DNA of 60,959 nucleotides, counting the filler. It is 4 parts of 4 records of this genome, joined end to end, with 100 filler letters (N's around TTAATTAATTAA, not from the genome) between each part and the next. Parts side by side here need not be neighbours in the genome. Positions count along the whole stretch, not along the records: positions 25,602 to 41,606 come from SRR22947725_426; 3 more parts are not named here. The stretch is one strand, 5' to 3'. Of the stretch, positions 25,502-54,909 are shown piece by piece; position 1 is the first letter of the stretch, and every line of letters starts with the position of its first letter. The notes under the pieces are model-generated. The model did not search any database. It saw only the letters and a list, made by a program, of their open reading frames with translations, and had not been told where the DNA came from. Made by a program: the position numbers and the translations under genes.

Positions 25502-25601
25502 NNNNNNNNNNNNNNNNNNNNNNNNNNNNNNNNNNNNNNNNNNNNTTAATTAATTAANNNNNNNNNNNNNNNNNNNNNNNNNNNNNNNNNNNNNNNNNNN
25601 N
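25502..25601. other. artificial contig linker
   Basis: N44-TTAATTAATTAA-N44, stops in all six frames; genes truncated on both sides. Confidence 0.98.
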
Positions 25602-25931
25602 AGTTGCTTTGTTTTTTTTAGCATAATTTACTATTTCCATAGCCTGAATTGTTCTTTCAGAACTTACTGATAGGGGATAAGTGTTATTTCTCAATACATT
25701 TCCAAAAACTAAATATTTAATTATTGTATTGTAAAATAAGTCAACTGCATCTATAGATGTGAATGAATAAGCACCTAATTTTATAGCTTTTTCTTTAATT
25801 TTATTAGATTCTTCATTTGTATAACCTCCAGTATTAATATTAACTGCATGAACCTCATTATCAATTGATAATTTTTTTAAGCAATATGAGGTGTCCAATC
25901 CTCCACTGTAAGCAAGTACTATTTTTTTCAT
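25602..25931 (-). CDS. argG: argininosuccinate synthase, 3' truncated
   Basis: KIVLAYSGGLDTS, YPLSVSSER (Bacteroidetes-type). Confidence 0.92.
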
Positions 25932-26458
25932 GATTTATTTTTTGGTTCATAAAGCATCCCCGTGCAAAGACACATGGATTTATTTGTTCTGTTTAATATG
26001 TCGTAATTTTTACATGTTTGACATCCTTTCCAAAATTCTTCATCGCTTGTTAACTCAGAAAAAGTTACTGGTTTATATCCCAATTGATAATTTATTTTCA
26101 TAACTGGTAAGCCAGTGGTAATTCCAAATATCTTAGCGTTTGGATATTTAATGATTGAATGTTCAAATGTTAATTTCTTAATTTTTTTCGCAAGTCCTTT
26201 TCCTCTAAATAATGGATTAACTATTAGTCCTGAATGAGCAACATATTTTCCATGCCCCCATATTTCTATATAACAAAATCCAGCAAAATCATTTTTTTTG
26301 GTTGCAATAACAGCGTTGCCATTTTCAATTTTTTTTCTAATGTATTCGGGTGATCTTAAAGCTATACCTGTTCCTCTAGTTTTTGCTGAAGAACTAATAG
26401 ATTTTGATATAATATCACAATATTTTATATGCTTCAAAGAAGCAACAGTAATGTCCAA
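25928..26458 (-). CDS. GNAT acetyltransferase heading the Bacteroidetes arginine operon (putative N-acetylglutamate synthase)
   Basis: GLIVNPLFRGKGLA acetyl-CoA motif, FWKGCQTC...CLCTG; 4-bp overlap with argG. Confidence 0.8.
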   Translation of the reverse strand: MDITVASLKHIKYCDIISKSISSSAKTRGTGIALRSPEYIRKKIENGNAVIATKKNDFAGFCYIEIWGHGKYVAHSGLIVNPLFRGKGLAKKIKKLTFEHSIIKYPNAKIFGITTGLPVMKINYQLGYKPVTFSELTSDEEFWKGCQTCKNYDILNRTNKSMCLCTGMLYEPKNKS

Positions 26459-26514
26459 GATGTTAAAATTTTAGTTAAGAATGAATTGAAATGAAACTGG
26501 ACTCACCTAGTTTC

Positions 26515-26598
26515 CTAAATAGATATATACCCAAAAGGGCGGGCACGACGGGTTGCCGATGTGTTTAAAGAAAAATTAAAATATCTATTGTTAATCAC
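26515..26598 (-). CDS. putative arginine-sensing leader peptide, 27 aa (MINNRYFNFSLNTSATRRARPFGYISI)
   Basis: GTG...TAG frame between the promoter motif and the GNAT gene; CGT CGT GCC CGC cluster in a GC-rich patch. Confidence 0.65.
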   Translation of the reverse strand: MINNRYFNFSLNTSATRRARPFGYISI

Positions 26599-26612
26599 AT
26601 TGTAAATGTCTA

Positions 26613-26620
26613 CAAAAATA
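26613..26620 (-). promoter_or_regulatory. Bacteroidetes -7 promoter element for the arginine leader and operon
   Basis: Minus strand TATTTTTG matches TAnnTTTG, 14 nt before the leader GTG. Confidence 0.5.
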
Positions 26621-26658
26621 TTTAACAAACAAAATATATTTTAAAAAAAACAATTAAG

Positions 26659-26666
26659 TAAATTTG
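26659..26666 (+). promoter_or_regulatory. Bacteroidetes -7 promoter element for pabB
   Basis: TAAATTTG matches TAnnTTTG, followed by an A-rich stretch without Shine-Dalgarno and the start at 26680. Confidence 0.5.
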
Positions 26667-26679
26667 AAGAAAAAAAAAA

Positions 26680-27966
26680 TTGAAAAGATTTTCTAAAAAA
26701 TTTAAACATGAAGATTTAAATCTTTTTAGAGATAAATTATTAAAGTGGTCAAATAAGTTTACTCACTCTTCATTTTTAAATTCAAACAACTACAGTTCTA
26801 ATATTAAACAATATGAGTGCATATGTGCTGTTGAACTGGAGTCGGAGATACCTTTTACAAAAAATAATTCCACACAGAAACTGGATAATTATTTAAAAAA
26901 AGTTGATGACTGGGTATTCGGATATTTAAATTATGATTTAAAAAATGAGATTGAAAATTTAAAAAGTAATAATCCTGACAATTTTAACTTACCTAATCTA
27001 TATTTTTATCAGCCAAAAAAAATATGGATCATTAAAAATGATTATGTTGAAGCTTTGTATTTAGAATCTAATTTAATTATTGAAGATTGGAACACTATTA
27101 ATAGTTTGAATTGTAAAAATGAAAACAATCCTTTTAATCCTCCTACACTAAGCCAAAAACTTAATAAAGAACAATATTTAAATAAGATAGATGTATTAAA
27201 AAACCATATTAATAGAGGAGATGTATATGAAGCCAACTTTTGTTTTGAGTGGTTTAGTGAACATGCTAAAATAAATCCACTTTACGTTTATAAAAATCTT
27301 AATAAAATATCTAAATCTCCAATGAGTGTTTATTTTAAAAACAAAAAATTACATTTAATTTGCTCTTCACCAGAAAGATATTTAAAAAGAAATAATAACA
27401 AACTAATTAGTCAACCCATTAAAGGTACAAGTAGACGAGATATAGATTTTGTTATTGATAAAAAATTAAAGGATAATTTAAGCCTTGATCCTAAAGAAAG
27501 GTCTGAAAATATAATGATTGTAGATTTAGTAAGAAATGATATGTCAAGATTTTCAAAACCAGGTTCTGTTAAGGTTAAGGAATTATGTGAGGTTTATCCT
27601 TTTAAACAAGTTCATCAAATGATTTCTACAATTGAATCTAAAGTTGATTCTTCTTTGAAAATTAGTAAAATAATTGAGGGTAGTTTTCCAATGGGCAGTA
27701 TGACTGGAGCTCCTAAAGTTAAAGCAATGAAAATAATTGATGAACTTGAGGAAACAAAAAGAGGGCTTTACAGTGGAGCTATTGGTTTTATAGATCCTTA
27801 TGGTAATTTTGATTTTAATGTAGTTATAAGGTCACTTATATATGATTCTGAGAGTAAACACTTGTCTTTTCATGTAGGTAGTGCTATTACTGCTAAATCA
27901 AAAGGGGTAAACGAATATGATGAATGCTTGTTAAAAGGTAAAGCAATGATTTTATCATTAACTTAA
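26680..27966 (+). CDS. pabB: aminodeoxychorismate synthase component I
   Basis: SSPERY, PIKGT, KERSENIMIVDLVRND, FPMGSMTGAPK, RGLYSG. Confidence 0.85.
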   Translation: MKRFSKKFKHEDLNLFRDKLLKWSNKFTHSSFLNSNNYSSNIKQYECICAVELESEIPFTKNNSTQKLDNYLKKVDDWVFGYLNYDLKNEIENLKSNNPDNFNLPNLYFYQPKKIWIIKNDYVEALYLESNLIIEDWNTINSLNCKNENNPFNPPTLSQKLNKEQYLNKIDVLKNHINRGDVYEANFCFEWFSEHAKINPLYVYKNLNKISKSPMSVYFKNKKLHLICSSPERYLKRNNNKLISQPIKGTSRRDIDFVIDKKLKDNLSLDPKERSENIMIVDLVRNDMSRFSKPGSVKVKELCEVYPFKQVHQMISTIESKVDSSLKISKIIEGSFPMGSMTGAPKVKAMKIIDELEETKRGLYSGAIGFIDPYGNFDFNVVIRSLIYDSESKHLSFHVGSAITAKSKGVNEYDECLLKGKAMILSLT

Positions 27967-27990
27967 TTTATATACTTTTTTAATGTAATA

Positions 27991-29277
27991 TTGTTAAGAA
28001 TGTTAGATCTAATTAATAAACACATTGATAATGATTTGTCTTTTTTACATGGCAAAAAATTATTGGTTTGTGTTAGTGGAGGTATTGACAGCGTGGTTCT
28101 TTTGCACCTTTTAAATAAAATGAATTATAAAATTGGAGTTGCACATTGTAATTTTAAATTGAGGCATAAAGAAAGTGATGATGATAGTTTTTTTGTTGAA
28201 AATTTATGCAATAAAATATCTGTCCCGTTTTATATAAAAGATTTTAATATTAATATACCTAAGCATTCAGTCCAAATGGCTGCTAGAAAATTAAGGTATG
28301 ATTGGTTTTATGAATTACTTGAGTTATATAAATATGATTTTATATTAACTGCTCATCATTTAAATGATTCTATAGAAACATTTTTTATTAATTTAACTAG
28401 ATCTACTGGAATTGATGGTCTTACTGGTATAAATTCAATTAATAATAAAGTAGTTCGACCTTTACTGCCCTTTAATAAATCTCAAATAATTGATTATGCT
28501 AATGATAATAATATTAAATGGAGAGAAGATTCTTCTAACTTAAAAAACGATTATTTGAGAAATAAAATTCGTAATAAGTTAGTTCCAGTCTTTATTGATA
28601 TTGATTCTAATTTTACAAGTAACTTTTCTAAAACCTTAGTTCGTCTAAATGAATCTAATTTAATCTTAAAAGAACATACAGAAAATTTTAAGTCCATTAA
28701 TTTTAAAACTAAAAATGATGAAATTTTAATCTTAAAAACAGCACTTAAAGATTTGTCAAGTGTAATGATTTTTAATTTGTTTACTGATTATGGATTTAAA
28801 AACACAGATCAAATTGTTAGTTTATGTAAAGCTGAAACTGGAAAAATTATTACTTCTAAACTATATTCTATTTTAAGCAATAGGACACATCTAATAATTA
28901 AAAAAAATACTAAAAATATTAAAATAGATTATTTTTATAATAACCAAAATGATTTCTTGTTACCAGAAAATATCCTAGTAGAAGAAGGTAATTACGTTAA
29001 TGACAAAAAATCTTTATACTTAATTAAAGATCAAATTAATTTTCCTTTAATAATCAGAAAATGTCAACCCGGTGATTTGATTTATCCAACAGGGATGAAT
29101 GGAAAAAAATTAGTGTCTAAATTATTAAAAGACAATAAGCTGTCTAAATTTGAAAAAGATAAACAATATGTGCTAACTGATCAAGATCATATTTTATGGG
29201 TGATTGGCATAAGATTTGATAAAAGAAAGTATAGTGACACTGATTCTAATTTAAAAATATCATTCTTTGAAAAATAA
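27991..29277 (+). CDS. tilS: tRNA(Ile)-lysidine synthetase; start may be the ATG at 28000
   Basis: SGGIDS PP-loop, AAR..RY, TAHH.ND..ET, RPLL, RNKIR. Confidence 0.92.
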   Translation: MLRMLDLINKHIDNDLSFLHGKKLLVCVSGGIDSVVLLHLLNKMNYKIGVAHCNFKLRHKESDDDSFFVENLCNKISVPFYIKDFNINIPKHSVQMAARKLRYDWFYELLELYKYDFILTAHHLNDSIETFFINLTRSTGIDGLTGINSINNKVVRPLLPFNKSQIIDYANDNNIKWREDSSNLKNDYLRNKIRNKLVPVFIDIDSNFTSNFSKTLVRLNESNLILKEHTENFKSINFKTKNDEILILKTALKDLSSVMIFNLFTDYGFKNTDQIVSLCKAETGKIITSKLYSILSNRTHLIIKKNTKNIKIDYFYNNQNDFLLPENILVEEGNYVNDKKSLYLIKDQINFPLIIRKCQPGDLIYPTGMNGKKLVSKLLKDNKLSKFEKDKQYVLTDQDHILWVIGIRFDKRKYSDTDSNLKISFFEK

Positions 29278-31219
29278 TTTTTTAGTAATATTATTTTTAA
29301 CTCTAAGTTTTCTTGGTTATTCTCAGGATCCAATAACTTTTGAGACTAAGGTAAAAAAGATTTCTGAAAACACTTTTGAACTAGTTACTACAGCTAACAT
29401 TCAGAACAAGTGGAGGTTATATTCACAGAACTTATTATCTGGGGGAGCGATTCCAACAGAGTTTATTTTTGATAATAAATCACAATCCATTAAATTAATT
29501 GGAGATGTTAGTGAGTCTCAATCAATAACAAAATTTGATCCTATTTTTCAGATTGAACAATCTTATTTTGAAAATCAATCAACTTTCACACAATTAATTG
29601 AGACTAATAAAATTATTGATAATATATCTGCTGTAATTGCATATCAGGCTTGTGACGACGTTGTGTGTATTTTTAGAGAAGCAAATCTTATTTTTAATTT
29701 TGACGGATCAACATTAGCTATTGAAAATGTAGATTTAACATCCGATATCTATGAAAACAACAATGCATTAGCAATTGATTTAAAAAACACGGAATTATTA
29801 TCTACAATTAACGATAGTTCAGCTTTGACTTCTAATTCTTATTTAAATCTATTTATACTTGGATTCATTGGTGGTTTATTAGCTCTGCTAACTCCATGTG
29901 TATTTCCTATGATCCCATTAACAGTCTCATTTTTTACTAATAATAAGTCTAAAAATAATTCCAAGTTTAATGCAATTACATATGGTCTTTTTATAATTGG
30001 TATTTATTTATCTTTAAGTATACCTTTTCATTTTCTTGATTCAATCAATCCAGAAATATTGAATAGTATATCAACAAATGCAGGGTTAAATATTTTCTTT
30101 TTCATAGTTTTTGTTCTATTTGCATTTTCATTTTTTGGTTTTTATGAAATAACAATTCCTTCCAAATGGGTTAATTCAATTGATTCTAAATCTAATTCAA
30201 TTGGTGGTTATATAGGAATATTTTTCATGGCATTGACTTTGGTTTTAGTGTCATTTTCTTGTACAGGACCAATACTAGGTTCTCTACTAGTTGGATCAAT
30301 TTCATCTCAAGGTGGTGCTATTCAGCTCACAATAGGCATGTTAGGCTTTGGAGTTGCTTTAGCATTGCCATTTACAATTTTTGCTTTGTTTCCAAACTTA
30401 CTTAGCACACTTCCTAAATCTGGTAGATGGATGAATACTTTTAAAGTAATTTTAGGTTTTTTAGAGTTAGGTTTTGCATTTAAATTTTTATCAAATGCTG
30501 ATTTAGTTGAACATTGGGGAATACTTAAAAGAGAAGTTTTTATTGGAATATGGGTATTGATTTCTTTTGCTTTATCCATGTATTTGTTAGGTTTATACAA
30601 ATTCCCTCACGAGAATAAAAGTGTTATTACTTCAAAATTTAATCTTATTCTTGGTTTTTTTGTTCTTGGGTTTTCCGTTTATCTATTTCCAGCTTTGTTA
30701 CAAAACGGTTCTGATAAGGCTAGAATTTTAAGTGGTTTTACTCCTCCTGCATTTTATTCTATTTACAGTAAGTCAAATGATTGTCCTTTGGGCTTTACAT
30801 GCTTTAAAGACTTTGATTCAGGTCTTAGTTACGCTAAATCTCAAAACAAACCAATATTATTAGATTTTACAGGATGGGCATGTGTAAATTGTAGGAGGAT
30901 TGAAGAAAACGTTTGGACTGATCCTGAAGTTTATAGTTTGATTGATGATAATTTTGTTTTAATATCTCTGTATGTAGACGATAGAAAGGAGTTAGATGTT
31001 AAAGATTTCATCACATTAAAATACAAGTCTGGTAAAGAAAAAATTATTAAAACAGTAGGAGAGAAGGGAGCTACTTTTCAAGCAATTAACTTCAAAAGTG
31101 CTTCGCAACCGTATTATGTACTCTTAGATAATAATTTAAGAATACTTAATAAACCTATACAGTACACTTCTAAAGATAAATACTTGAATTGGTTAAAAGA
31201 GGGTTTAAGTAATTTATAG
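29267..31219 (+). CDS. dsbD: thiol:disulfide interchange protein DsbD (Bacteroidetes type)
   Basis: N-domain YQACDDVVC, membrane LTPCVFPMIP and SFSCTGP, thioredoxin domain GWACVNCR. Confidence 0.9.
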   Translation: MKNNFLVILFLTLSFLGYSQDPITFETKVKKISENTFELVTTANIQNKWRLYSQNLLSGGAIPTEFIFDNKSQSIKLIGDVSESQSITKFDPIFQIEQSYFENQSTFTQLIETNKIIDNISAVIAYQACDDVVCIFREANLIFNFDGSTLAIENVDLTSDIYENNNALAIDLKNTELLSTINDSSALTSNSYLNLFILGFIGGLLALLTPCVFPMIPLTVSFFTNNKSKNNSKFNAITYGLFIIGIYLSLSIPFHFLDSINPEILNSISTNAGLNIFFFIVFVLFAFSFFGFYEITIPSKWVNSIDSKSNSIGGYIGIFFMALTLVLVSFSCTGPILGSLLVGSISSQGGAIQLTIGMLGFGVALALPFTIFALFPNLLSTLPKSGRWMNTFKVILGFLELGFAFKFLSNADLVEHWGILKREVFIGIWVLISFALSMYLLGLYKFPHENKSVITSKFNLILGFFVLGFSVYLFPALLQNGSDKARILSGFTPPAFYSIYSKSNDCPLGFTCFKDFDSGLSYAKSQNKPILLDFTGWACVNCRRIEENVWTDPEVYSLIDDNFVLISLYVDDRKELDVKDFITLKYKSGKEKIIKTVGEKGATFQAINFKSASQPYYVLLDNNLRILNKPIQYTSKDKYLNWLKEGLSNL

Positions 31220-31684
31220 TGTTTTTCCTTTATGATATATCAATGGATTTAACATAGATTTATTTATTTCACCACTCAAATATTTACCAATATATATGTA
31301 ATGGTCTCCAGAACTTATTATATCTGATATTTTACATTCAAGGAAAGAACAAGAATTTGATATTATTTTTATATTATTTTTGGATTCAGTTGTTTCAACT
31401 CCTTTAAACCTTTCTTTTTGACTTAATTTGTTATTAGCAAACTGATAACAAATATCTTTTTGAAGATTACTTAAGATACTTACATTAAAAAAACTATTTT
31501 TTTTCAGAGCAATGTTTGATTTAGCTTCTTTGTTTAAACAAAATAAAACTAATAGTGGATCAATAGAAACAGAAGTAAATGAATTAGCTGTAAATCCATA
31601 ATCTATATTATTGTCTTTAGAGGTTATTATAGTAACTCCTGTAGCATAAGTACTACAAATTTCTTTAAAAAGAGATGTGTTCAT
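31214..31684 (-). CDS. flavin reductase family protein
   Basis: ATGVTIIT, TANSFTSVSIDP, GDH. Confidence 0.88.
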   Translation of the reverse strand: MNTSLFKEICSTYATGVTIITSKDNNIDYGFTANSFTSVSIDPLLVLFCLNKEAKSNIALKKNSFFNVSILSNLQKDICYQFANNKLSQKERFKGVETTESKNNIKIISNSCSFLECKISDIISSGDHYIYIGKYLSGEINKSMLNPLIYHKGKTL

Positions 31685-31696
31685 TAATAAAATTTG

Positions 31697-32422
31697 TCAA
31701 ATATAACGATATACATCATTAAAAGGAACTCTTAATTGATCTCCATAAATCCCTTCCTTAGTTCTAATTCCACATCCAATAACCATATTTATTTCAGATT
31801 TGTATGGAAGATTTAATATGTTTTTTACCATTAAAGTATCTGATCCCTCCATAGGACAAGTATCATAACCAATTGCTGACATACTTAACATAAAGTTTTG
31901 AGCTGCTAATCCAGCGCTTTTGTGAGCAACAATTCTTGTATCTGAACTTGTAACCTGTCTCATGGTTGGTCTGAACAATCCAATAGTTTGAAATATTATA
32001 CTTTTAATTAATCCGATAATACCAAAAAAATCTGTGTATAATGTTGGAATAATTTTTTTATAATAAGCATGCGCTTGTTTTAATCTTTTTTTAGAAATTT
32101 CATTATTTTTTGATTGCGTTGTAATAACATCAACATTCCATTGAGCTCTTTCTTTCCAAAGATCTTTTCTTACAACAATAACAACTAATTGATTAGCCGT
32201 TTTAGCAGCATTTTGATTAAAGCAAGCTTTTGATAATTTCTTTAGAATTTTTTTATCGCTAACATGAATAAATTCCCATAATTGAAGGTTACTACTGTTG
32301 GGGGCTAAGCTTGCATTAAATAAGCATTTTTTAACTTTCTCAGGGTCGATGTCATCATTATTAAAAAGTCTTACAGACCTACGATATTTTATAGCGTCAG
32401 AAACCGATTTTTCATTCTTCAT
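31697..32422 (-). CDS. nitroreductase family protein
   Basis: RRSVR, APNSSNLQLWEF, GYDTCPMEG. Confidence 0.88.
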   Translation of the reverse strand: MKNEKSVSDAIKYRRSVRLFNNDDIDPEKVKKCLFNASLAPNSSNLQLWEFIHVSDKKILKKLSKACFNQNAAKTANQLVVIVVRKDLWKERAQWNVDVITTQSKNNEISKKRLKQAHAYYKKIIPTLYTDFFGIIGLIKSIIFQTIGLFRPTMRQVTSSDTRIVAHKSAGLAAQNFMLSMSAIGYDTCPMEGSDTLMVKNILNLPYKSEINMVIGCGIRTKEGIYGDQLRVPFNDVYRYI

Positions 32423-32423
32423 T

Positions 32424-33806
32424 TTATGAAATTAAATTTAATATTTTTTTTAAGAAACTTATCTTATTTTTAAAAGGAGGATATCTCAATGGAGGATCTA
32501 TCCATAGAGGCTTAGAAATGTATGGCTTGAAATGAGAAAATGTATCAAATGTTGATTCTCCATGGTATTTCCCCATACCACTTTGTCCAACTCCTCCAAA
32601 AGGCAGTCTATCATTTGCTATATGCATAACAGTATCATTAATAGCACCACCTCCAAATGGGTGAGATTCTAAAAATTTTTTTCCAAATTCACTTCTGTTA
32701 GTAAAAATATATAATGCTAAAGGATGTGAATATTTATTTACTAATTCATCAACCTCTTTAAAATCACTATATTCAATAATAGGTAATATTGGTCCAAATA
32801 TTTCATCTTCCATTATTTTAGAATCTAAATTTTCAACTTCTACTATTGTTGGTTCAAAAAACTTACTATTCATATCAAATTTACCACCATGCAATATTTT
32901 TTCGTTCTTGAGCAATGAATTAAGATATTTCATGTGTTTATCACTAATAATTCTCCCATATTCTTCACATTTTATAACATCATCACTATAGGTTTTAATA
33001 ATTTGGGCAATTAATTCTTTAATTAAATCGTTTTTTATTTTTTTATTTACAATTAAAAAATCAGGAGCTATACATGTTTGACCACAGTTTGTAAATTTTC
33101 CCCACACTATTCGTTTTGCTGTGACCTTAATTGAAGCAGTTTCGTCAACTATACAAGGGTTTTTTCCGCCAAGTTCAAGAGTTGTAGGTGTTAAGTTTGT
33201 AGCAGCAGCTTTTGCTATAATTTTTCCAACGCTAACACTTCCTGTGAAAAAGATATAATCCCATTTAAATTTTAATAATTTAGTTGATATATCAGGACCA
33301 CCGAGAACAACATCTACGTGACCTTTATCAAAAACTGAACTTAAAATTTTATTTAATATTTGACTTGTTTGTTCAGAGTATTCAGATGGTTTTAAAAGAA
33401 CCGTATTTCCAGCTGCTATTGCTCCGATTAGTGGAGCAATTGATAATTGAAAAGGGTAGTTCCAAGGTGAAATATGGAGTGTGTTTCCATAGGGTTCAGC
33501 AATTATGTAATCAGATGATGGAAAATTTAGTAGGGTAGATTTAACAGCTTTTCTTTTGGTCCATTTTTTTAAATTTCTAAGAGCAATTTTAATTTCGGAA
33601 TAAACAAAATGTATCTCAGTTAAATAACTTTCTCCTTTTGATTTACCTAAGTCATTAAATAAAGCTAATTCTATTTCTTTTTCGCTAGATTTAATCTCAT
33701 TTAAAAGATCTTTTAATTTTTGAATTCTAAAGTCGACATTATATGTTTTTTTTGATTTAAAATAGTTTTTTTGATTGTCAATTGTTGATTTTAATGATTT
33801 ATCCAT
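32424..33806 (-). CDS. aldehyde dehydrogenase (ALDH3-like)
   Basis: PWNYP, KPSE, FTGS, LELGGKNP, GQTCIAPD, EIFGP. Confidence 0.9.
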   Translation of the reverse strand: MDKSLKSTIDNQKNYFKSKKTYNVDFRIQKLKDLLNEIKSSEKEIELALFNDLGKSKGESYLTEIHFVYSEIKIALRNLKKWTKRKAVKSTLLNFPSSDYIIAEPYGNTLHISPWNYPFQLSIAPLIGAIAAGNTVLLKPSEYSEQTSQILNKILSSVFDKGHVDVVLGGPDISTKLLKFKWDYIFFTGSVSVGKIIAKAAATNLTPTTLELGGKNPCIVDETASIKVTAKRIVWGKFTNCGQTCIAPDFLIVNKKIKNDLIKELIAQIIKTYSDDVIKCEEYGRIISDKHMKYLNSLLKNEKILHGGKFDMNSKFFEPTIVEVENLDSKIMEDEIFGPILPIIEYSDFKEVDELVNKYSHPLALYIFTNRSEFGKKFLESHPFGGGAINDTVMHIANDRLPFGGVGQSGMGKYHGESTFDTFSHFKPYISKPLWIDPPLRYPPFKNKISFLKKILNLIS

Positions 33807-33920
33807 AAAAAAAGGGTTTTTTAGAATAATTAAATTATGATTTTGATAAAAATATGAATTAAAATAATGATGAGGTAAATTAATTGATTTTTTGTTTACT
33901 TTTATACAGTATTAATTTTT

Positions 33921-33953
33921 ACTCCTTCTCTTTAGATAAGGGGTTTTTTTTTT
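33921..33953 (+). terminator. intrinsic-terminator-like hairpin in the ilvD leader (candidate attenuator)
   Basis: ACTCCTT...AAGGGGT stem followed by a run of about 10 T, ending 4 nt before the ilvD ATG; the upstream gene is divergent. Confidence 0.55.
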
Positions 33954-33957
33954 AGAA

Positions 33958-35631
33958 ATGAGTTTAAATAAATATAGTAAAGCCGTCACCCAAGATCCTA
34001 CTCAGCCAGCCGCTAAAGCAATGCTTCATGCAATTGGATTAACTACTAAGGATTTATCTAAGCCGTTTGTTGGTATTGCTAGTACTGGTTATGAGGGTAA
34101 TCCTTGTAATATGCATTTAAATGATCTTTCTAAGAATATTAAAGATGGTATTAATAAAAATGAATTAATTGGATTAATATTTAATACAATTGGAGTTAGT
34201 GATGGTATTTCAATGGGAACTCAAGGCATGAGATATTCACTTCCTTCTCGTGATATTATCGCTGATTCAATTGAGACTGTTGTACAAGCAATGGCTTATG
34301 ATTCTTTAATTACTGTTGTTGGTTGTGATAAAAATATGCCTGGTGCATTAATTTCAATGCTAAGACTCAATCGACCATCAATTTTAGTTTATGGTGGAAC
34401 AATTGCTCCTGGGTGTCATAAAGGAAAGAAACTTGATGTTGTTTCAGCATTTGAAGCTTGGGGTGAAAAAGTTTCTGGAAAAATTGATGAAAATGAATTT
34501 AGTAATATTATAAAAAATGCCTGTCCAGGTGCTGGTGCCTGCGGTGGAATGTATACTGCAAACACCATGTCGTCTGCAATAGAGGCAATGGGTATGTCAC
34601 TTCCGTATAATTCATCAAATCCTGCAACTAGTTCTCAAAAAACTAAAGAATGCGATTTAGTTGGAAAAGCAATTTTTAATTTAATTAATCTTGATTTAAA
34701 ACCTTTAGACATAGTTACTAAAGAATCTATTAAAAACGCTGTAAGATTAATAACAGTTTTAGGAGGATCAACAAATGCTGTTCTTCACATGCTTGCCATT
34801 GCTAAAAGTGCTAATATTAATTTTACAATTGACGATTTTCAAAAAATTTCAGAAAAGACTCCTTTTTTAGCAGATTTAAAGCCTAGCGGAAAATTTCTTA
34901 TGGAAGACCTTCATGATGTTGGTGGAGTTCCAGCTGTAATGAAATATATGTTAGAAAATAATTTGTTAAATGGAGACTGCATGACAGTTACTGGAAAAAC
35001 AATAAAAGAAAATTTAGAAGATGTAAAATCATTAGATTTTAATCAAAATGTAATAAAACCAATCTCAGAACCTATTAAAGATTCTGGACATATTAGAATC
35101 TTATACGGAAATATAGCTACAAAAGGGTCAGTTGCAAAAATTACTGGAAAAGAAGGTCTAAAATTTTCAGGAAAAGCTATTGTTTTTGATTCTGAACAGG
35201 AAGCTAATGATGGTATAAAAAATGGATTAGTTAAAAAAGGTAATGTAGTTGTTATACGTTATGTAGGTCCAAAGGGTGGGCCAGGAATGCCCGAAATGTT
35301 AAAACCTACATCGGCAATAATGGGTTGTGGATTAGGAAAGGAAGTAGCATTAATAACAGATGGTAGATTTTCAGGTGGTACTCATGGTTTTGTCGTTGGT
35401 CATATTTGTCCTGAAGCTCAAGACGGAGGTAACATAGCACTTATAAAAAATAACGATAACATAATCATTGATGCGATTACTAATTCAATATCTTTAGATA
35501 TTTTAGAAGAAGAATTGACAAAAAGAAAAAATAATTGGATTAAACCAGAACTTAAGTTTAAAAACGGAATATTATATAAATATTGCAAAAATGTTTCAAA
35601 TGCATCTAAAGGATGTGTTACAGATAATTAA
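33958..35631 (+). CDS. ilvD: dihydroxy-acid dehydratase
   Basis: [41 protein letters not shown]. Confidence 0.95.
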
Positions 35632-37328
35632 TGAGTAATAATAAGAAAATATCAGGTGCAGAGGCAGTTATAAGGACATTAATTGAAGAAGGTGTAGATT
35701 TAATATACGGTTATCCTGGAGGTGCAATTATGCCTATATATGATGAGTTGTATAAGTTTCAAGATAAATTAAATCACGTTTTAACTAGACATGAACAAGG
35801 TGCTACTCATGCTGCTCAAGGCTTTTCAAGAGTTTCAGGAAAAGTAGGAGTAGTCATGGCTACATCCGGCCCTGGGGCTACTAATTTAGTTACAGGAATT
35901 GCAGATGCTCAAATAGATTCAACTCCAATGGTTTGCATAACTGGTCAAGTCGCATCACATTTACTTGGTTCTGATGCTTTTCAAGAAACTGATATAATTG
36001 GCATATCAACGCCTGTTACAAAATGGAATTGTCAAATAACTCAAGCTAAAGATATTCCAGAGATTTTGGCTAAAGCATTTTATATTGCTAGGACAGGAAG
36101 GCCGGGTCCTGTTTTAATAGATATTACAAAAGATGCTCAATTTGAATTAATGAGTTTTCAGTATAATAAATGTTTTTCTGTAAGAAGTTACAAACCAGTT
36201 CCCGATTATTCAACTGATCAAATCAAAAAAGCTAGTCATTTAATTAATGAATCAAAAAAACCATTTATTGTTTTTGGACAAGGTGTTATTTTGGGTGAAG
36301 CTGAAAATGAATTTAAGGAATTTATAGAGAAAACAGGAATACCTTCAGCTTGGACCATCTTAGGGTTGTCTGCCTTACCTACTGAACATTATTTAAATGT
36401 AGGAATGGTTGGAATGCACGGAAATTATGGTCCCAACGTTTTAACTAACGAATGTGATTTGCTAATAGCTATAGGAATGCGTTTTGATGATCGTGTAACG
36501 GGTAATTTAGAGACTTACGCTAAGCAAGCTAAGATTATTCATATGGAAATTGACCCTGCAGAAATAAATAAGAATGTTGAGTGTGATATTTCAGTCTTAG
36601 GAAACATTAAAGAAACTATTCCTTTATTAACGTCAATGGTTAATAAAAATTCTCATAAAAGTTGGTTAGATAAATTTTCATTTCATTATGAAATTGAATT
36701 TAAAAAAGTTATTAATAAAGAAATTAATCCAACAAAGAACGGATTAACAATGGCTGAAGTTATTAAAGAAATTAATAATTCGACGAATGGAGATGCAATT
36801 ATTGTAACAGATGTTGGACAGCATCAAATGGTTACTTGTAGGTATGCTAAATTTAATAAATCTAAATCTAATGTTACCTCTGGCGGATTAGGAACCATGG
36901 GTTTTGCACTTCCTGCGGCTCTTGGTGCTAAAATGGGAGCACCTGATAGAGAAGTTGTCGCTGTTATAGGTGACGGAGGATATCAAATGACAATTCAAGA
37001 ATTAGGCACAATTTTTCAAACTGGTAGTGCGGTTAAAATTGTTGTTTTAAATAACAATTTTTTAGGAATGGTCAGACAATGGCAACAAATGTTTTTTGAA
37101 AAAAGGTATGCCTCTACAGAACTTGTAAATCCTGATTTTGTAACTATAGCTAAAGGATATTATTTGGAAGCTGAAAAGGTGAGTGAAAGGAAAAATTTGA
37201 AAGAAGCAGTGAATAGAATGATAAAATCTAAAAAACCTTATTTTTTAGAAGTTTCTGTTGAAAAAGAGGATAACGTATTTCCAATGATTCCGACAGGTGC
37301 TTCAGTTTCAGATATTAGATTAGAATAA
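35631..37328 (+). CDS. ilvB: acetolactate synthase large subunit
   Basis: GYPGGA, RHEQGA, TSGPGATN, RFDDRVTG, GDGG..M, GMVRQWQ. Confidence 0.95.
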   Translation: MSNNKKISGAEAVIRTLIEEGVDLIYGYPGGAIMPIYDELYKFQDKLNHVLTRHEQGATHAAQGFSRVSGKVGVVMATSGPGATNLVTGIADAQIDSTPMVCITGQVASHLLGSDAFQETDIIGISTPVTKWNCQITQAKDIPEILAKAFYIARTGRPGPVLIDITKDAQFELMSFQYNKCFSVRSYKPVPDYSTDQIKKASHLINESKKPFIVFGQGVILGEAENEFKEFIEKTGIPSAWTILGLSALPTEHYLNVGMVGMHGNYGPNVLTNECDLLIAIGMRFDDRVTGNLETYAKQAKIIHMEIDPAEINKNVECDISVLGNIKETIPLLTSMVNKNSHKSWLDKFSFHYEIEFKKVINKEINPTKNGLTMAEVIKEINNSTNGDAIIVTDVGQHQMVTCRYAKFNKSKSNVTSGGLGTMGFALPAALGAKMGAPDREVVAVIGDGGYQMTIQELGTIFQTGSAVKIVVLNNNFLGMVRQWQQMFFEKRYASTELVNPDFVTIAKGYYLEAEKVSERKNLKEAVNRMIKSKKPYFLEVSVEKEDNVFPMIPTGASVSDIRLE

Positions 37329-37329
37329 C

Positions 37330-37863
37330 ATGAAAGATTTAAAAAATACATACACTGTATCAATTTACACTGAAAATAACATAGGTTTATTAAACAGAAT
37401 TTCTGCAATATTTTTAAAACGTCATATAAATATTGAAAGTCTGACAACATCGCCTTCAGAAATTGATAATATATTCAGATTTGTTATTGTAGTTAAATCA
37501 ACTGAATTTTCAATAAAAAGGATTATTAAACAGATAGAAAAACAAATTGAAGTAATAGCTTCTTTTTATCATACTGATGATCAAACTATATTTCTAGAAA
37601 CAGCTCTTTATAAAGTTAAGTCAAAATCACTTTTTGATGAAAAACATATTCAAAAGATTATTAAAAATAGTCAGGCTAACATTGTAACAGTTTCACCAAG
37701 TTATTTTGTTATAGAAAAAACTGGATGGAGAGATGACACAGAGAAATTGTATAAAGAATTGGAACCTTACGGGTTATTACAATTTGTAAGATCAGGAAGA
37801 ATTTCGGTTTCTAAAGAACCAATGAATATTTCCAATTTACTTGGATTAAATACAGATAAATAA
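37330..37863 (+). CDS. ilvN: acetolactate synthase regulatory subunit
   Basis: ACT domain ENNIGLLNRI, NIESL, VRSGR; operon position. Confidence 0.9.
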   Translation: MKDLKNTYTVSIYTENNIGLLNRISAIFLKRHINIESLTTSPSEIDNIFRFVIVVKSTEFSIKRIIKQIEKQIEVIASFYHTDDQTIFLETALYKVKSKSLFDEKHIQKIIKNSQANIVTVSPSYFVIEKTGWRDDTEKLYKELEPYGLLQFVRSGRISVSKEPMNISNLLGLNTDK

Positions 37864-37866
37864 ATT

Positions 37867-39336
37867 ATGAAAAATTATTTTAATAAATTACCGTTAAGTC
37901 AAAAAATTGATCAATTAGGTAAATGTAGATTCATGGACTCCTCTGAGTTTTCAGATGGAGTTTCAGTATTACTTGGTAAAAAAATTGTTATTATAGGTTG
38001 TGGTGCACAGGGCTTGAATCAAGGCCTTAACATGAGGGATTCTGGTCTTGATATCTCTTATGCATTAAGAAAGGAAGCAATTTCACAGAAAAGAGATTCT
38101 TATATAAATGCAACATCAAATGATTTTGTAGTAGGAACTTTTGAGGAACTGATTCCAAGTTCAGATATGGTTTTAAACTTAACACCTGATAAAAATCACA
38201 CCAGTGTAGTAACCAATTTGATGCCTTTAATGAAAAAAAATTCAGTGCTGTCTTATTCACATGGTTTTAATGTAGTTGAAGAGGGAATGGAGATTAGAAA
38301 TGACATAACAGTAATTATGGTTGCTCCTAAATGTCCTGGAAGTGAAGTAAGAGAAGAGTATAAAAGAGGTTTTGGTGTTCCAACACTTATAGCAGTTCAT
38401 CCTGAAAATGATCCATTAAATATTGGTATGGATGTTGCAAAAGCTTATGCAGTTGCTACTGGCGGCAATAGAGCAGGTGTTTTGGAGTCGTCATTTGTCG
38501 CCGAAGTTAAATCAGATTTAATGGGTGAACAGACAATTTTATGTGGAGTATTACAAACAGGTTCAATACTTTCGTTTAATAATATGGTACAAAACGGAAT
38601 TGATCCAGCATATGCCTCGAAATTAATTCAATACGGTTGGGAAACTATTACTGAAGCATTAAAACACGGTGGTATCACAAACATGATGGATCGATTAAAT
38701 AATTCGGCTAAAATTGAAGCTTTTAATCTTTCAGAAGATTTAAAAGACATAATGAGACCATTATTTAACAAACATATGGATGATATTATGTCGGGACATT
38801 TTTCCTCAACTATGATGGAAGACTGGAATAATGACGATATTAACCTGTTGAGTTGGAGAGCTGAAACTGAAAAAACTGCATTTGAAAAAACTTCACCCTG
38901 CAAAGATGAGATTTCCGAACAAGAATTTTTTGATAATGGATTACTAATGGTAGCTTTTATAAGGTCAGGTGTTGAATTAGCATTTGAAACAATGACAAAC
39001 TCGGGTATTATTGATGAATCTGCCTACTATGAATCTCTCCACGAAACTCCTTTAATAGCTAATTTAATAGCTAAGAAAAAATTATTTGAAATGAACAGGA
39101 TTATTTCTGACACAGCTGAATATGGCTGTTATTTATTTGATCATGCATGCAAACCGTTATTGAAAGATTTTTTTAAAACAATTGAATCAAAACACATCGG
39201 CAAACCTTTTCTTCATTCAAAACAGATTGATAATACAGAATTAATTAAAGTGAACGAAATTATAAGATCTCATCCTGTTGAATTAATAGGAAAGAAGCTA
39301 AGAACATCAATGACTTCAATGAAAACAATTGTTTAA
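37867..39336 (+). CDS. ilvC: ketol-acid reductoisomerase (long class II form)
   Basis: [30 protein letters not shown]. Confidence 0.95.
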
Positions 39337-39350
39337 TTAAAATTAAGACT

Positions 39351-40931
39351 ATGAATATGGTTCCAAAAGAATATCAAATTAATAAAGTAATTAATCATAA
39401 TGAATATTTGATTAATGGCAAAATAAGTAATTGGGACGGAAAACACACTCAAGTTTATTCTACATTACTTAGTGTTAAAAATGATGATAAGCCATTACTT
39501 ATTGGAAACACGCCAGAAATGTCAGGTGATTATGCTTTAAAAGCATTAGATGCTGCTCACACTGCATTTAATTATGGACAAGGAGTTTGGCCTACTATGA
39601 AGGTTTATGAAAGAATTCAATGCATGGAATCTTTTGTAGAAAAAATGAAAACTAAAAGAGAAGAGATTGTTAAACTTTTAATGTGGGAAATTGGAAAGAA
39701 TTTAAATGATTCAAGAAAAGAATTTGATAGAACAGTAGAATACATAAATGATACAATTGTTGAGTATAAAAGGATTGATAGAAAGGGAGCTACTTTTCAA
39801 AATAAATCTGGTGTAAGAGCTTTAATAAGAAGAGGTCCACTTGGTGTGGTATTATGTTTAGGTCCATATAATTATCCTTTAAATGAAACTTTTGCATTAT
39901 TGATACCTGCTATTATAATGGGAAATACAACAATCTTTAAACCAGCAAAACATGGAGTTTTATTAATTGCACCATTATTAGAGGCTTTTAAAGAATCTTT
40001 TCCTGACGGTGTTGTGAATATAGTTTTTGGTAGAGGAAGAGAGATAGCCACTCCAATTATGAAAAGTGGAAAAGTTGATGTTTTAGCCTTAATTGGCCAT
40101 AGTTCATCAGCTATTTCTTTACAAGATTTACATCCCCAAAAAAACAGATTAAGATTAGTTTTAGGTTTAGAAGCAAAAAATCCTGGAATAATTTTAAAAG
40201 ATGCGGATATTGACTTAACTGTTAAAGAATGTATTTCAGGTACTCTATCGTTTAATGGTCAAAGATGTACAGCTCTGAAAATATTATATGTCCACGATGA
40301 AATTAAAGATGAGTTCTTATCTAAATTTGTCAAGGCTGTGGATGAATTAAAGCTAGGTCTTCCCTGGGAAAACACATTGTTAACTCCTTTGCCAGAGCCA
40401 GCAAAGCCTAAATATATTTCTGACTTAATTGATGATGCTATTAGTCAAGGCGCAAAAATATTAAATAAAAAGGGTGGGGATAAACAAAAGAATTTTGTCT
40501 TTCCAGCAGTATTATATCCAGTAAAAAAGGAAATGAAAGTTTATAAAGAGGAACAGTTTGGTCCTGTAATACCAATAATTTCATTTTCTGACATATCAAC
40601 TCCTATTAAAGACATGTCTGCTTCTAATTATGGGCAGCAAGTAAGTATCTTTGGCAAGGATGTAGATACATTAGGCCCAATAATTGATTCTATGGTGAAT
40701 TTAGTATGTAGAGTGAATTTAAATAGTGCTTGTCAAAGAGGGCCAGATATTTATCCATTTACAGGAAGAAAAGATTCCGCAGTAGCTACATTAAGTGTTC
40801 ATGATGCACTTAGATCATTTTCAATAAGAACATTTGTTGCCTCAAAAGACAATGAACTCAATAAGGGTATTTTAAGGGAAATGATAGATTCTAAAAAATC
40901 ACATTTCATTAGAACAGATTATTATCTTTAA
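39351..40931 (+). CDS. gapN: non-phosphorylating NADP-dependent glyceraldehyde-3-phosphate dehydrogenase (ALDH superfamily)
   Basis: [49 protein letters not shown]. Confidence 0.75.
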
Positions 40932-41605
40932 TTATTTAGCATAACTGGCATTACCAGCATAGTGATTTCTTCAGCTTCAGAACCAGAATTTGTTGGTGTT
41001 AGAATTCCAGCTCTATTTGGAAGTGACAGTTCTAATTTAACCTCATTAGAATTTAAGTTTGATAACATTTCTGTTAAAAACCTTGAATTAAAACCAATTT
41101 GCATATCATCTCCATTATAATTACAAATTAATCTTTCCTCAGCTTTATTGCTATAATCTAAATCTTCTGCAGAAATAATTAATTCATTACCTGTAATTTT
41201 AAGTCTAACTTGATGAGTTGTTTTGTTAGAAAAAATACTCACCCTTTTGGTAGAGTTTAAAAACAAAGATCTGTCAATAGTTAAAACATTTGGGTTTTCT
41301 TTAGGAATAACAGCTTCATAGTTTGGATATTTGCCGTCAATTAATCTACAAGTTAAAGACAAATTTGAGAAAGTGAATTTTGCATTACTATCATTAAATT
41401 CAATTTTAACATCAAATTCATTAGTAGCTAAAATACCTTTTAAAATATTTAAAGGTTTTTTGGGCATTATAAATTCAACAAGTTTATCAGATTTATAGTC
41501 AGTTCTTACGTATCTTACTAATTTGTGAGCATCTGTTGCTACAAAAGTTGAGTTTTCACTTGAAAATTGAAAAAAGACACCACTCATAACAGGTCTTAAA
41601 TCATC
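40928..41605 (-). CDS. dnaN: DNA polymerase III beta clamp, 5' truncated
   Basis: [34 protein letters not shown]. Confidence 0.93.
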
Positions 41606-41606
41606 G

Positions 41607-41706
41607 NNNNNNNNNNNNNNNNNNNNNNNNNNNNNNNNNNNNNNNNNNNNTTAATTAATTAANNNNNNNNNNNNNNNNNNNNNNNNNNNNNNNNNNNNNN
41701 NNNNNN
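41607..41706. other. artificial contig linker
   Basis: N run, TTAATTAATTAA, N run; same design as the first linker. Confidence 0.98.
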
Positions 41707-54809: not shown

Positions 54810-54909
54810 NNNNNNNNNNNNNNNNNNNNNNNNNNNNNNNNNNNNNNNNNNNNTTAATTAATTAANNNNNNNNNNNNNNNNNNNNNNNNNNNNNNNNNNN
54901 NNNNNNNNN
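54810..54909. other. artificial contig linker
   Basis: N44-TTAATTAATTAA-N44. Confidence 0.98.

Follow-up and report, generated by a model that had tools for sequence, protein, structure and literature searches.

A probable arginine leader-peptide attenuator upstream of the GNAT-argG genes in Flavobacteriaceae

Attenuation by a translated leader is taught for the operons of tryptophan, histidine, leucine, threonine, phenylalanine and isoleucine/valine biosynthesis, and the leaders trpL, hisL, leuL (which uses rare codons), thrL, pheL and ilvL constitute families in Rfam. Arginine biosynthesis, by contrast, is the textbook example of control by the repressor ArgR. In the pyrBI-type attenuation of enterobacteria, UTP is sensed via polymerase pausing, and the leader open reading frame (ORF) runs into the terminator hairpin. 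Here, we describe a candidate arginine leader on the minus strand of contig SRR22947725_426, which occupies positions 25602-41606 of the analysed window (a stretch of 60,959 nt in which several contigs are joined by N blocks). A short ORF precedes the genes for a GNAT-family acyltransferase and for argininosuccinate synthase (argG) on this contig, and the element is probably a ribosome-mediated leader-peptide attenuator of the arginine-biosynthesis operon that reads the supply of charged tRNA-Arg. According to the accessible parts of the respective publications, the Salmonella speF leader responds to the arginine level through its ORF (PMC6386406), and rare Arg codons in the leader peptide of rbfL from Staphylococcus aureus, two of the AGA/AGG type, pause ribosomes under arginine limitation, with rbfL blocking the ribosome-binding site of a biofilm regulator and thus repressing it under limitation (PMC13009471). 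Leader-peptide attenuation upstream of amino-acid operons is also mentioned for Flavobacterium psychrophilum in the accessible text of PMC9723704. A leader peptide of arginine biosynthesis is not described in the literature searched for Flavobacteria, Bacteroidota and elsewhere, although the supplements of PMC9723704 might name one. Similarly, no arginine-biosynthesis case of an arginine-linked, Rho-dependent leader is contained in the literature searched, and arginine is not mentioned in the accessible parts of PMC2965389 or PMC4833913.

The case for the element rests on comparison with relatives, and the window alone proves little because the fold of its own leader is not unusual (z = -0.83). 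For this comparison, GNAT homologues were aligned and 80 loci from named Flavobacteriaceae genomes and metagenome-assembled genomes were fetched, among them those of the cultivable marine isolates Zobellia uliginosa, Maribacter vaceletii and Flagellimonas flava. A further, independent set comprised 80 metagenome loci, and the upstream regions of 60 GNAT genes were taken from a 401-genome sample of Bacteroidota (G042-G446). The sets of distinct sequences comprised 131 leaders for the comparison of reading frames, 132 leaders for a terminator scan, and 75 genome sequences for the covariation of a hairpin termed P2. Nearly every Flavobacteriaceae locus shows the same layout, which consists of a TAnnTTTG-like box and, a few nucleotides downstream, the start codon of an ORF of 20-30 codons that ends in Arg codons, then a first hairpin (P1), a spacer of 10-16 nt (in 83/86 loci, its first 10 nt containing 4.9 T on average), P2, and about 47 nt to the GNAT start. 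The corresponding positions in the window are listed in Table 1.

The reading frame of the leader is conserved. Across 20 upstream codons, the frame defined by CGC-CCN contains no stop in 131/131 distinct leaders, compared with 36/131 and 53/131 for the other two frames. An Arg-tailed ORF that ends just 5' of P2 was found in 86 of the 90 genome loci and in 66 of the 68 metagenome loci with sufficient flank. Of the four genome loci that miss it, two are truncated contigs, and the other two (L063 and L070) carry a single Arg codon beside P1. Thus, the GC-rich patch pointed out in the initial annotation of this DNA is kept in frame and not merely as DNA or RNA, and the homologous loci do carry the short ORF. 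In the window this ORF is not annotated and belongs to an open frame that spans 26515..26628 in the ORF listing. Its 27 codons at 26598-26515 on the minus strand and the distance of 56 nt from its stop to the GNAT TTG start at 26458 agree with the initial annotation. Within the window's clade, many amino acids differ among about 11 diverged versions, yet these keep a length of 27-29 codons and the tail RR(A/T)RP-x-GY-x-SI, and GTG and ATG interchange as the start codon at one position. Different clades have only the RR(x)P core of the peptide in common. An ATG located one base upstream of the window's GTG runs straight into TGA, and the leader start is apparently the GTG rather than this overlapping ATG, because two relatives (L156 and L157) read AAAGTG and lack the latter. 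The ATG-TGA pair (26595-26600, minus strand), which overlaps the leader GTG by one base, is probably incidental. All in all, the leader ORF appears to be a conserved, in-frame short ORF of the operon's 5' leader whose translation is predicted, and the sequence features observed in the leader are evidently not due to chance.

The leader tails end in two to six Arg codons, almost always CGT or CGC (CGY), and 78 of 86 leaders have at least three Arg among their last 12 residues. CGY accounts for 297 of the 309 Arg codons (96%) in the last 12 codons of these 86 leaders, compared with 166 of 640 (26%) in GNAT, counted for 80 of these loci. The codon that precedes the invariant CGC ends in T in 74 cases, in C in 38, in G in one and in A in none (n=113). 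With T or C in 112 of 113 codons at this position, the constraint therefore appears to act on CGY and not on Arg as such, and the preference fits sensing via one rare isoacceptor. In the window, codon counts bear out the initial claim that the CGN patch stands out against flanking genes that use AGA. The long ORFs of the contig (5173 codons) contain 140 Arg codons, of which 101 are AGA, 25 AGG, nine CGT and five CGA, with neither CGC nor CGG among them, and the GNAT gene uses AGA for all five of its Arg residues.

Hairpin P1, which had been overlooked in the initial annotation, overlaps these codons, with the last Arg codon and the adjoining Pro codon making up its 5' arm. It is followed by a T-rich stretch, and a terminator scan of the window found one site, compared with 0.1 expected from shuffles. 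Under loose criteria, the same kind of scan on the 132 distinct leaders reported P1 in 63, P2 in none, and no site in 62. The earlier statement that there is no U-tract terminator is only half correct, as P1 and its T-rich tail qualify under loose criteria in the window and in those 63 leaders. P1 is present in nearly all loci and is near-invariant in the family, hence without covariation there. Compensatory stems occur in more divergent sequences, with CGCAC/GUGCG in L090, CGCC/GGCG in L065 and L172, CGC/GCG in L038 and GUACGC/GCGUAC in L175; L046 has a compensatory stem as well. Between the two hairpins, all the listed relatives of the window's clade (L153-L171) have the same TCTATTTA. The stop codon always lies between the P1 loop and P2 and falls into the P1 loop in most loci, while in the window's clade it follows seven codons after the Arg run. 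As a separate observation made by eye, many Maribacter- and Flagellimonas-like leaders contain a further small hairpin in the middle of the ORF, the sequence of which differs by locus (for example GAGCA...TGCTC, GGGC...GCCC or TAGCC...GGCTA). This could be a polymerase pause hairpin and was noted in L019, L021, L024, L027-L029, L041, L047, L049, L050, L056, L058, L059, L067, L075 and L079.

The second hairpin, GAAACT-AGGTGAGTCC-AGTTTC at 26514-26493, had been recognized from the start, and the comparison adds that its stem covaries. On the 75 distinct genome sequences, 7/8 pairs vary on both sides and 0/500 shuffles match the covariation score; in the independent metagenome set, whose alignment had been fitted to the model, 5/8 pairs covary. 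G-U pairs in P2 occur on the minus (leader) strand only. P2 is a real RNA hairpin. Its top is near-invariant and consists of a bulge of 1-3 nt, GG:CC and the loop UGNGN, with GG:CC replaced by GA:UC in the distant member L092. A partner for the loop was sought by eye, and no consistent covariation was seen with the base before CGCC, the leader 5' end or the GNAT start; the 3' arm of P1 changes in L038, L046, L065 and L090 while the loop stays. With 0/132 qualifying leaders, P2 was rejected as a terminator. A tRNA-like or T-box function of P2 was likewise dropped, as the loop holds no Arg codon and no tRNA gene was found in the window or in the 60 loci for comparison. Downstream of P2, the spacer to GNAT has a mean C content of 0.19 and a mean G content of 0.06 in 75 distinct loci, compared with 0.17 and 0.13 ahead of 240 further long ORFs. 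Over its final 45 nt, the leader averages 0.37 C and 0.22 G; the C-rich patch of the A+T-rich window is only about 22 nt long. Such a C-rich leader end followed by a G-poor spacer would suit Rho loading but is no proof of it.

At the 5' side, the TAnnTTTG box named in the initial annotation (26613-26620) is present in the sequence, but the box of the relatives aligns with 26610-26603 instead, and the latter may be the true promoter box. If the box at 26620-26613 is used, the leader has a 5' untranslated region of about 10 nt; if the box at 26610-26603 is used, the mRNA is leaderless. Of the 64 loci with an identified box, 52 have the start codon 2-8 nt after it, most commonly at 7 nt (26 loci), and in the window's clade the start codon follows 4 nt after the -7-like box. 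In F. psychrophilum this box is positioned at -12 to -5, and only 5.5% of the mRNAs are leaderless, as stated in the accessible part of PMC9723704. From the box-to-start distances and the box position reported for F. psychrophilum, the leader is therefore predicted to be translated from a leaderless or nearly leaderless mRNA. A leaderless 5' end would let a ribosome load once this end emerges.

Table 1. Features of the putative arginine leader and the adjoining genes, with positions in the window.
Feature	Position	Strand	Remarks
Leader region, then GNAT gene, then argG start		(-)	Gene order
TAnnTTTG-type -7 box of the initial annotation, TATTTTTG	26613..26620	(-)	Not kept at this position in L156 and L157
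Alternative -7-like box, GACATTTA	26603..26610	(-)	4 nt 5' of GTG; by-eye alignment to AATATTTG or ATATTTG in relatives
Leader ORF, 27 codons and stop	26515..26598	(-)	GTG start; translation MINNRYFNFSLNTSATRRARPFGYISI
Leader start codon GTG	26598-26596	(-)	
Leader stop codon TAG	26517-26515	(-)	
Putative regulatory Arg codons CGT CGT (GCC) CGC, then CCT	26539..26550 (CCT to 26536)	(-)	Rare codons in the contig
Hairpin P1	26527..26546	(-)	Core GCCC-TTTT-GGGT at 26540-26529; extended stem GTGCCCG/TGGGTAT
T-rich P1-P2 spacer, ATATCTATTTAG	26515..26526	(-)	Holds the last leader codons and the stop
Hairpin P2	26493..26514	(-)	GAAACT, bulged A, GG-TGAGT-CC, AGTTTC; covarying stem, near-invariant top
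A/T-rich, G-poor spacer from P2 to GNAT start	26459..26492	(-)	
GNAT-family acyltransferase, 176 aa	25928..26458	(-)	TTG start; first gene of the arg operon; PF00583, E = 2e-4
argG (argininosuccinate synthase), N-terminal 110 residues only	25602..25931	(-)	PF00764, E = 2.3e-17

A covariance model that combines the Arg codons, P1 and P2 gave one strong match per genome in 5/5 whole genomes, always at the arg locus. It also matched 71/80 metagenome loci and 9/60 loci of the phylum sample, the latter being those with the most similar GNAT, and a scan of a 150-genome sample of the phylum revealed at least three further carriers (34 candidates scored per genome). Rfam 15 yielded no match at gathering scores in the whole window, and a permissive Rfam search of 26300-26800 returned hits at chance level only, the best of which (E = 0.19) lay on the opposite strand. 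The ArgR C-terminal domain was not found in any of the five carrier genomes, whereas control genomes scored. Among the 401 Bacteroidota genomes, 167 contain the GNAT gene and 164 the ArgR C-terminal domain, and both occur together in only six (hand count). Four of these six were fetched, and in these argR is located directly upstream of GNAT and an Arg leader is lacking.

In other Bacteroidota, leaders of different construction occupy the corresponding position. The 60 GNAT upstream regions comprise nine with the design described here, 19 with a second and nine with a third design, three with CGA-CGA-CGA, four with argR, and 16 that are unclear. Peptides of the second design end in R-(I/F)-P-R-R-R-stop and use CGG codons. 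They resemble MQ..(L/A)AHRI....R(I/F)PRRR-stop, with CGG CGG CGG abutting the stop and a different hairpin and a C-rich tract thereafter (L104, L106-L109, L111-L114, L117, L119, L125, L126, L129, L130 and L134-L137). The third design is a conserved mini-ORF, M.K.SLHITS.SR.N...TSPEVR.L.., which contains two CGG codons and is located about 250 nt upstream of GNAT (L103, L110, L115, L116, L118, L121, L124, L128 and L132); the palindrome TTGTCCATTGGACAA lies nearer to the gene in several of these loci. L097-L100 contain, some 225-285 nt ahead of GNAT, a second ORF that likewise finishes with consecutive Arg codons (for example ...APRRRF-stop and ...MRFRMRRR-stop), and some Flavobacteriaceae may carry two tandem Arg leaders. 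Because different peptides with different rare Arg codons occur at the same place and ArgR is nearly excluded, we argue that the functional unit would be the run of Arg codons and that the leaders would take over the repressor's job.

If the element is an attenuator, a scarcity of Arg-tRNA would cause the ribosome to stall on the CGY codons and to cover the 5' arm of P1, so that P1 would stay open and the operon would be read through. With plentiful Arg-tRNA, the ribosome would finish and leave, P1 would close, and the transcript would be ended or inactivated. As the finishing ribosome would halt within the P1 loop or at some point ahead of P2, but no further, P1 would be free to close, and its closure would be the OFF signal. 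The OFF step itself might be intrinsic termination at the T-rich tail of P1, decay, or the loading of Rho onto the C-rich leader once this is freed, with P2 as a constant part of the device and possibly a site for pausing or factor binding.

Several points weigh against this attenuator model. The terminator signal appears weak, with P1 qualifying in fewer than half of the leaders even under the loose criteria. The classical 2:3 antiterminator was rejected, as the stretch that reaches from the 3' arm of P1 to the loop of P2 does not outdo its shuffled versions in folding (mean z = +0.18; z below -1.5 in 3/76). The choice of CGY could partly be structural, reflecting the P1 stem or C-richness rather than tRNA sensing, and L063 and L070 carry only a single Arg codon next to P1. 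By our own geometry, the Arg codons are located only about 22-31 nt upstream of a polymerase stopped at P1, and a trailing ribosome could arrive barely in time. Furthermore, the model assigns no role to the invariant P2 loop (GG-UGNGN-CC), and the available RNA data are limited to the co-occurrence of P1, P2 and GNAT on contigs.

Alternatively, the same sensor, a ribosome stalled on CGY codons, might have a post-transcriptional output, such that the stalled ribosome together with P1 and P2 would govern mRNA decay from the 5' end or translation of GNAT without any termination. This alternative seems unlikely to us, although it would agree with the lack of an antiterminator and, in about half of the leaders, of a clear terminator, and with a leader that begins at or near the mRNA 5' end, so that a stalled ribosome would sit there. 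A weak hint of a processed 5' end comes from four metatranscriptome runs of four studies, among 23 listed runs of which 13 are on record as RNA. Their RNA contigs contain P1, P2 and GNAT on single contigs and all end within 26535-26550, which is the 5' base of P1, with no coverage at 26548-26614; RNA contigs of the divergent gene begin anywhere from 26695 to 26800. These data are assembled contigs, from which transcript starts, ends, levels and growth conditions are not readable, and the boundary at P1 may represent either a processed 5' end or mere dropout, as the A+T-rich stretch upstream has only about 17% G+C and may be poorly covered. A purely post-transcriptional output is also at odds with the terminator-like P1 and T-rich tail in the window and in 63/132 leaders, and neither a nuclease site nor masking of the GNAT start was found.

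A further variant, which would be a new class of attenuator, is a device with two inputs, in which the Arg leader and P1 would report the charging of Arg-tRNA without an antiterminator, and the top of P2 would be a dedicated binding site for free arginine or an arginine-responsive factor. The factor bound to P2 would then set termination, pausing or decay. If free arginine were the ligand, P2 would be a natural arginine-binding RNA; we consider the device with two inputs quite improbable.

The initial annotation had favored arginine-dependent stalling at RRARP and had pointed to arrest peptides such as SecM. In a mechanism of this kind, which would resemble TnaC, SpeFL or the fungal arginine attenuator peptide, the nascent R-R-x-R-P chain with arginine bound inside the exit tunnel would arrest the ribosome on its stop codon or close to it and thereby control the operon. 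In favor of such an arrest, most leaders end in Arg-Arg-Arg-Pro directly before the stop, which lies within the P1 loop in most loci, and precedents exist in TnaC, which stalls as peptidyl-tRNA-Pro at its stop, and in CruR with its C-terminal RAPP (accessible part of PMC12360218). However, R-A-x-P and the complete RRARP motif are confined to the window's clade, where the stop is seven codons past the Arg run, whereas most leaders read RRRP-stop or RRP-x-GV. The segment upstream of the RR(x)P core varies freely across clades, and other Bacteroidota have quite different Arg-run peptides. Leu or Thr takes the place of Pro precisely in those leaders whose P1 stem departs from CCC:GGG (L038, L065 and L090), and because these replacements occur only with a change of the stem, Pro looks like a by-product of the CCC:GGG pairing and not like a selected residue. 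Finally, a stall at high arginine would turn the operon on, which is the wrong sign for biosynthesis judging from the known bacterial models covered in the accessible part of PMC12360218. Taken together, an arrest peptide is very doubtful. What persists of the original proposal is a conserved, in-frame and CGY-rich Arg leader upstream of GNAT-argG that may well stall ribosomes in an arginine-dependent manner, but not the RRARP motif as a general feature, the arrest, a selected Pro or a conserved tunnel segment. An RNA-only element, in which P1 and P2 form a riboswitch or protein-binding site and the ORF is incidental, would fit the near-invariant P1, the near-invariant P2 top on its covarying stem, the absence of synonymous change in the spacer TCT ATT TA of the window's clade and, as a new RNA, the lack of an Rfam match, but it is highly improbable given the open Arg frame in every distinct leader, the ORF length kept despite amino-acid changes, the interchange of GTG and ATG at one site, and the recurrence of Arg runs in unrelated leader designs without P2.

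The GNAT protein is 86-98% identical to proteins named as Flavobacteriaceae GNAT acetyltransferases, and because of this identity the contig at 25602-41606 evidently derives from a Flavobacteriaceae-like organism. In an alignment, the GNAT TTG start at 26458 matches the N-termini of 13 homologues. The argG gene is cut off by the contig end and an N block, and the divergent plus-strand neighbors of the leader encode a chorismate-binding enzyme and tilS. The contigs in the window are joined at 25502-25601, 41607-41706 and 54810-54909, where the filler consists of paired blocks of 44 N (for example 25502-25545 and 25558-25601). The genome nearest to the window, G001, has 39% of the window's words in common; DNA of 25610-29200 was found neither in G001 nor in two further genomes of its genus, and GNAT is absent from 40/41 genomes of the G001 group, with one weak match. 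The Flavobacteriaceae contig may thus be foreign to the other contigs of the window and reflect contamination of the bin. The relatives used for comparison were drawn from collections other than the genus of G001, whose genomes are no kin of the contig.

The element appears to be real and widespread, it is undocumented in the literature searched, and its predicted mechanism departs from the classical switch. Marine Flavobacteriaceae, a large and ecologically important group, appear to lack ArgR and seem to read arginine via rare Arg codons in a leaderless mini-gene, and much of the remaining Bacteroidota looks alike, with differently built leaders. The mechanism would show how attenuation works in bacteria without initiation led by Shine-Dalgarno sequences, and the unannotated leaders predict arginine-responsive expression in many uncultured marine genomes.

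Compared with the classical attenuators, the locus shares a short ORF with a run of cognate codons directly 5' of biosynthetic genes, the placement of the putative regulatory codons in the 5' arm of a hairpin with the stop just past this arm, and the use of rare codons. It differs in the amino acid, which is arginine, in the (nearly) leaderless mRNA predicted here, in that no 2:3 antiterminator was detected and half of the loci have a weak terminator or none, and in the extra hairpin with an invariant loop. The likeness to pyrBI is that the leader ORF enters a candidate terminator hairpin, which a ribosome can occlude without an antiterminator; pyrBI, however, senses UTP and not charged tRNA, whereas here a run of cognate codons lies in the hairpin arm. 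With tnaC, speFL (orf34 of speF) and cruR, as far as described in the accessible part of PMC12360218, the element has in common that Rho could be kept off the adjacent RNA by a ribosome held toward the end of a short leader ORF. Those leaders, however, belong to catabolic, polyamine or metal genes and mostly respond to a free ligand, whereas a biosynthetic operon is preceded here by a run of rare Arg codons. In contrast to the two codons of rbfL and their repressing effect under limitation, as given in the accessible part of PMC13009471, two to six CGY codons precede arginine-biosynthesis genes in the present leaders, and the expected sign of the response is induction.

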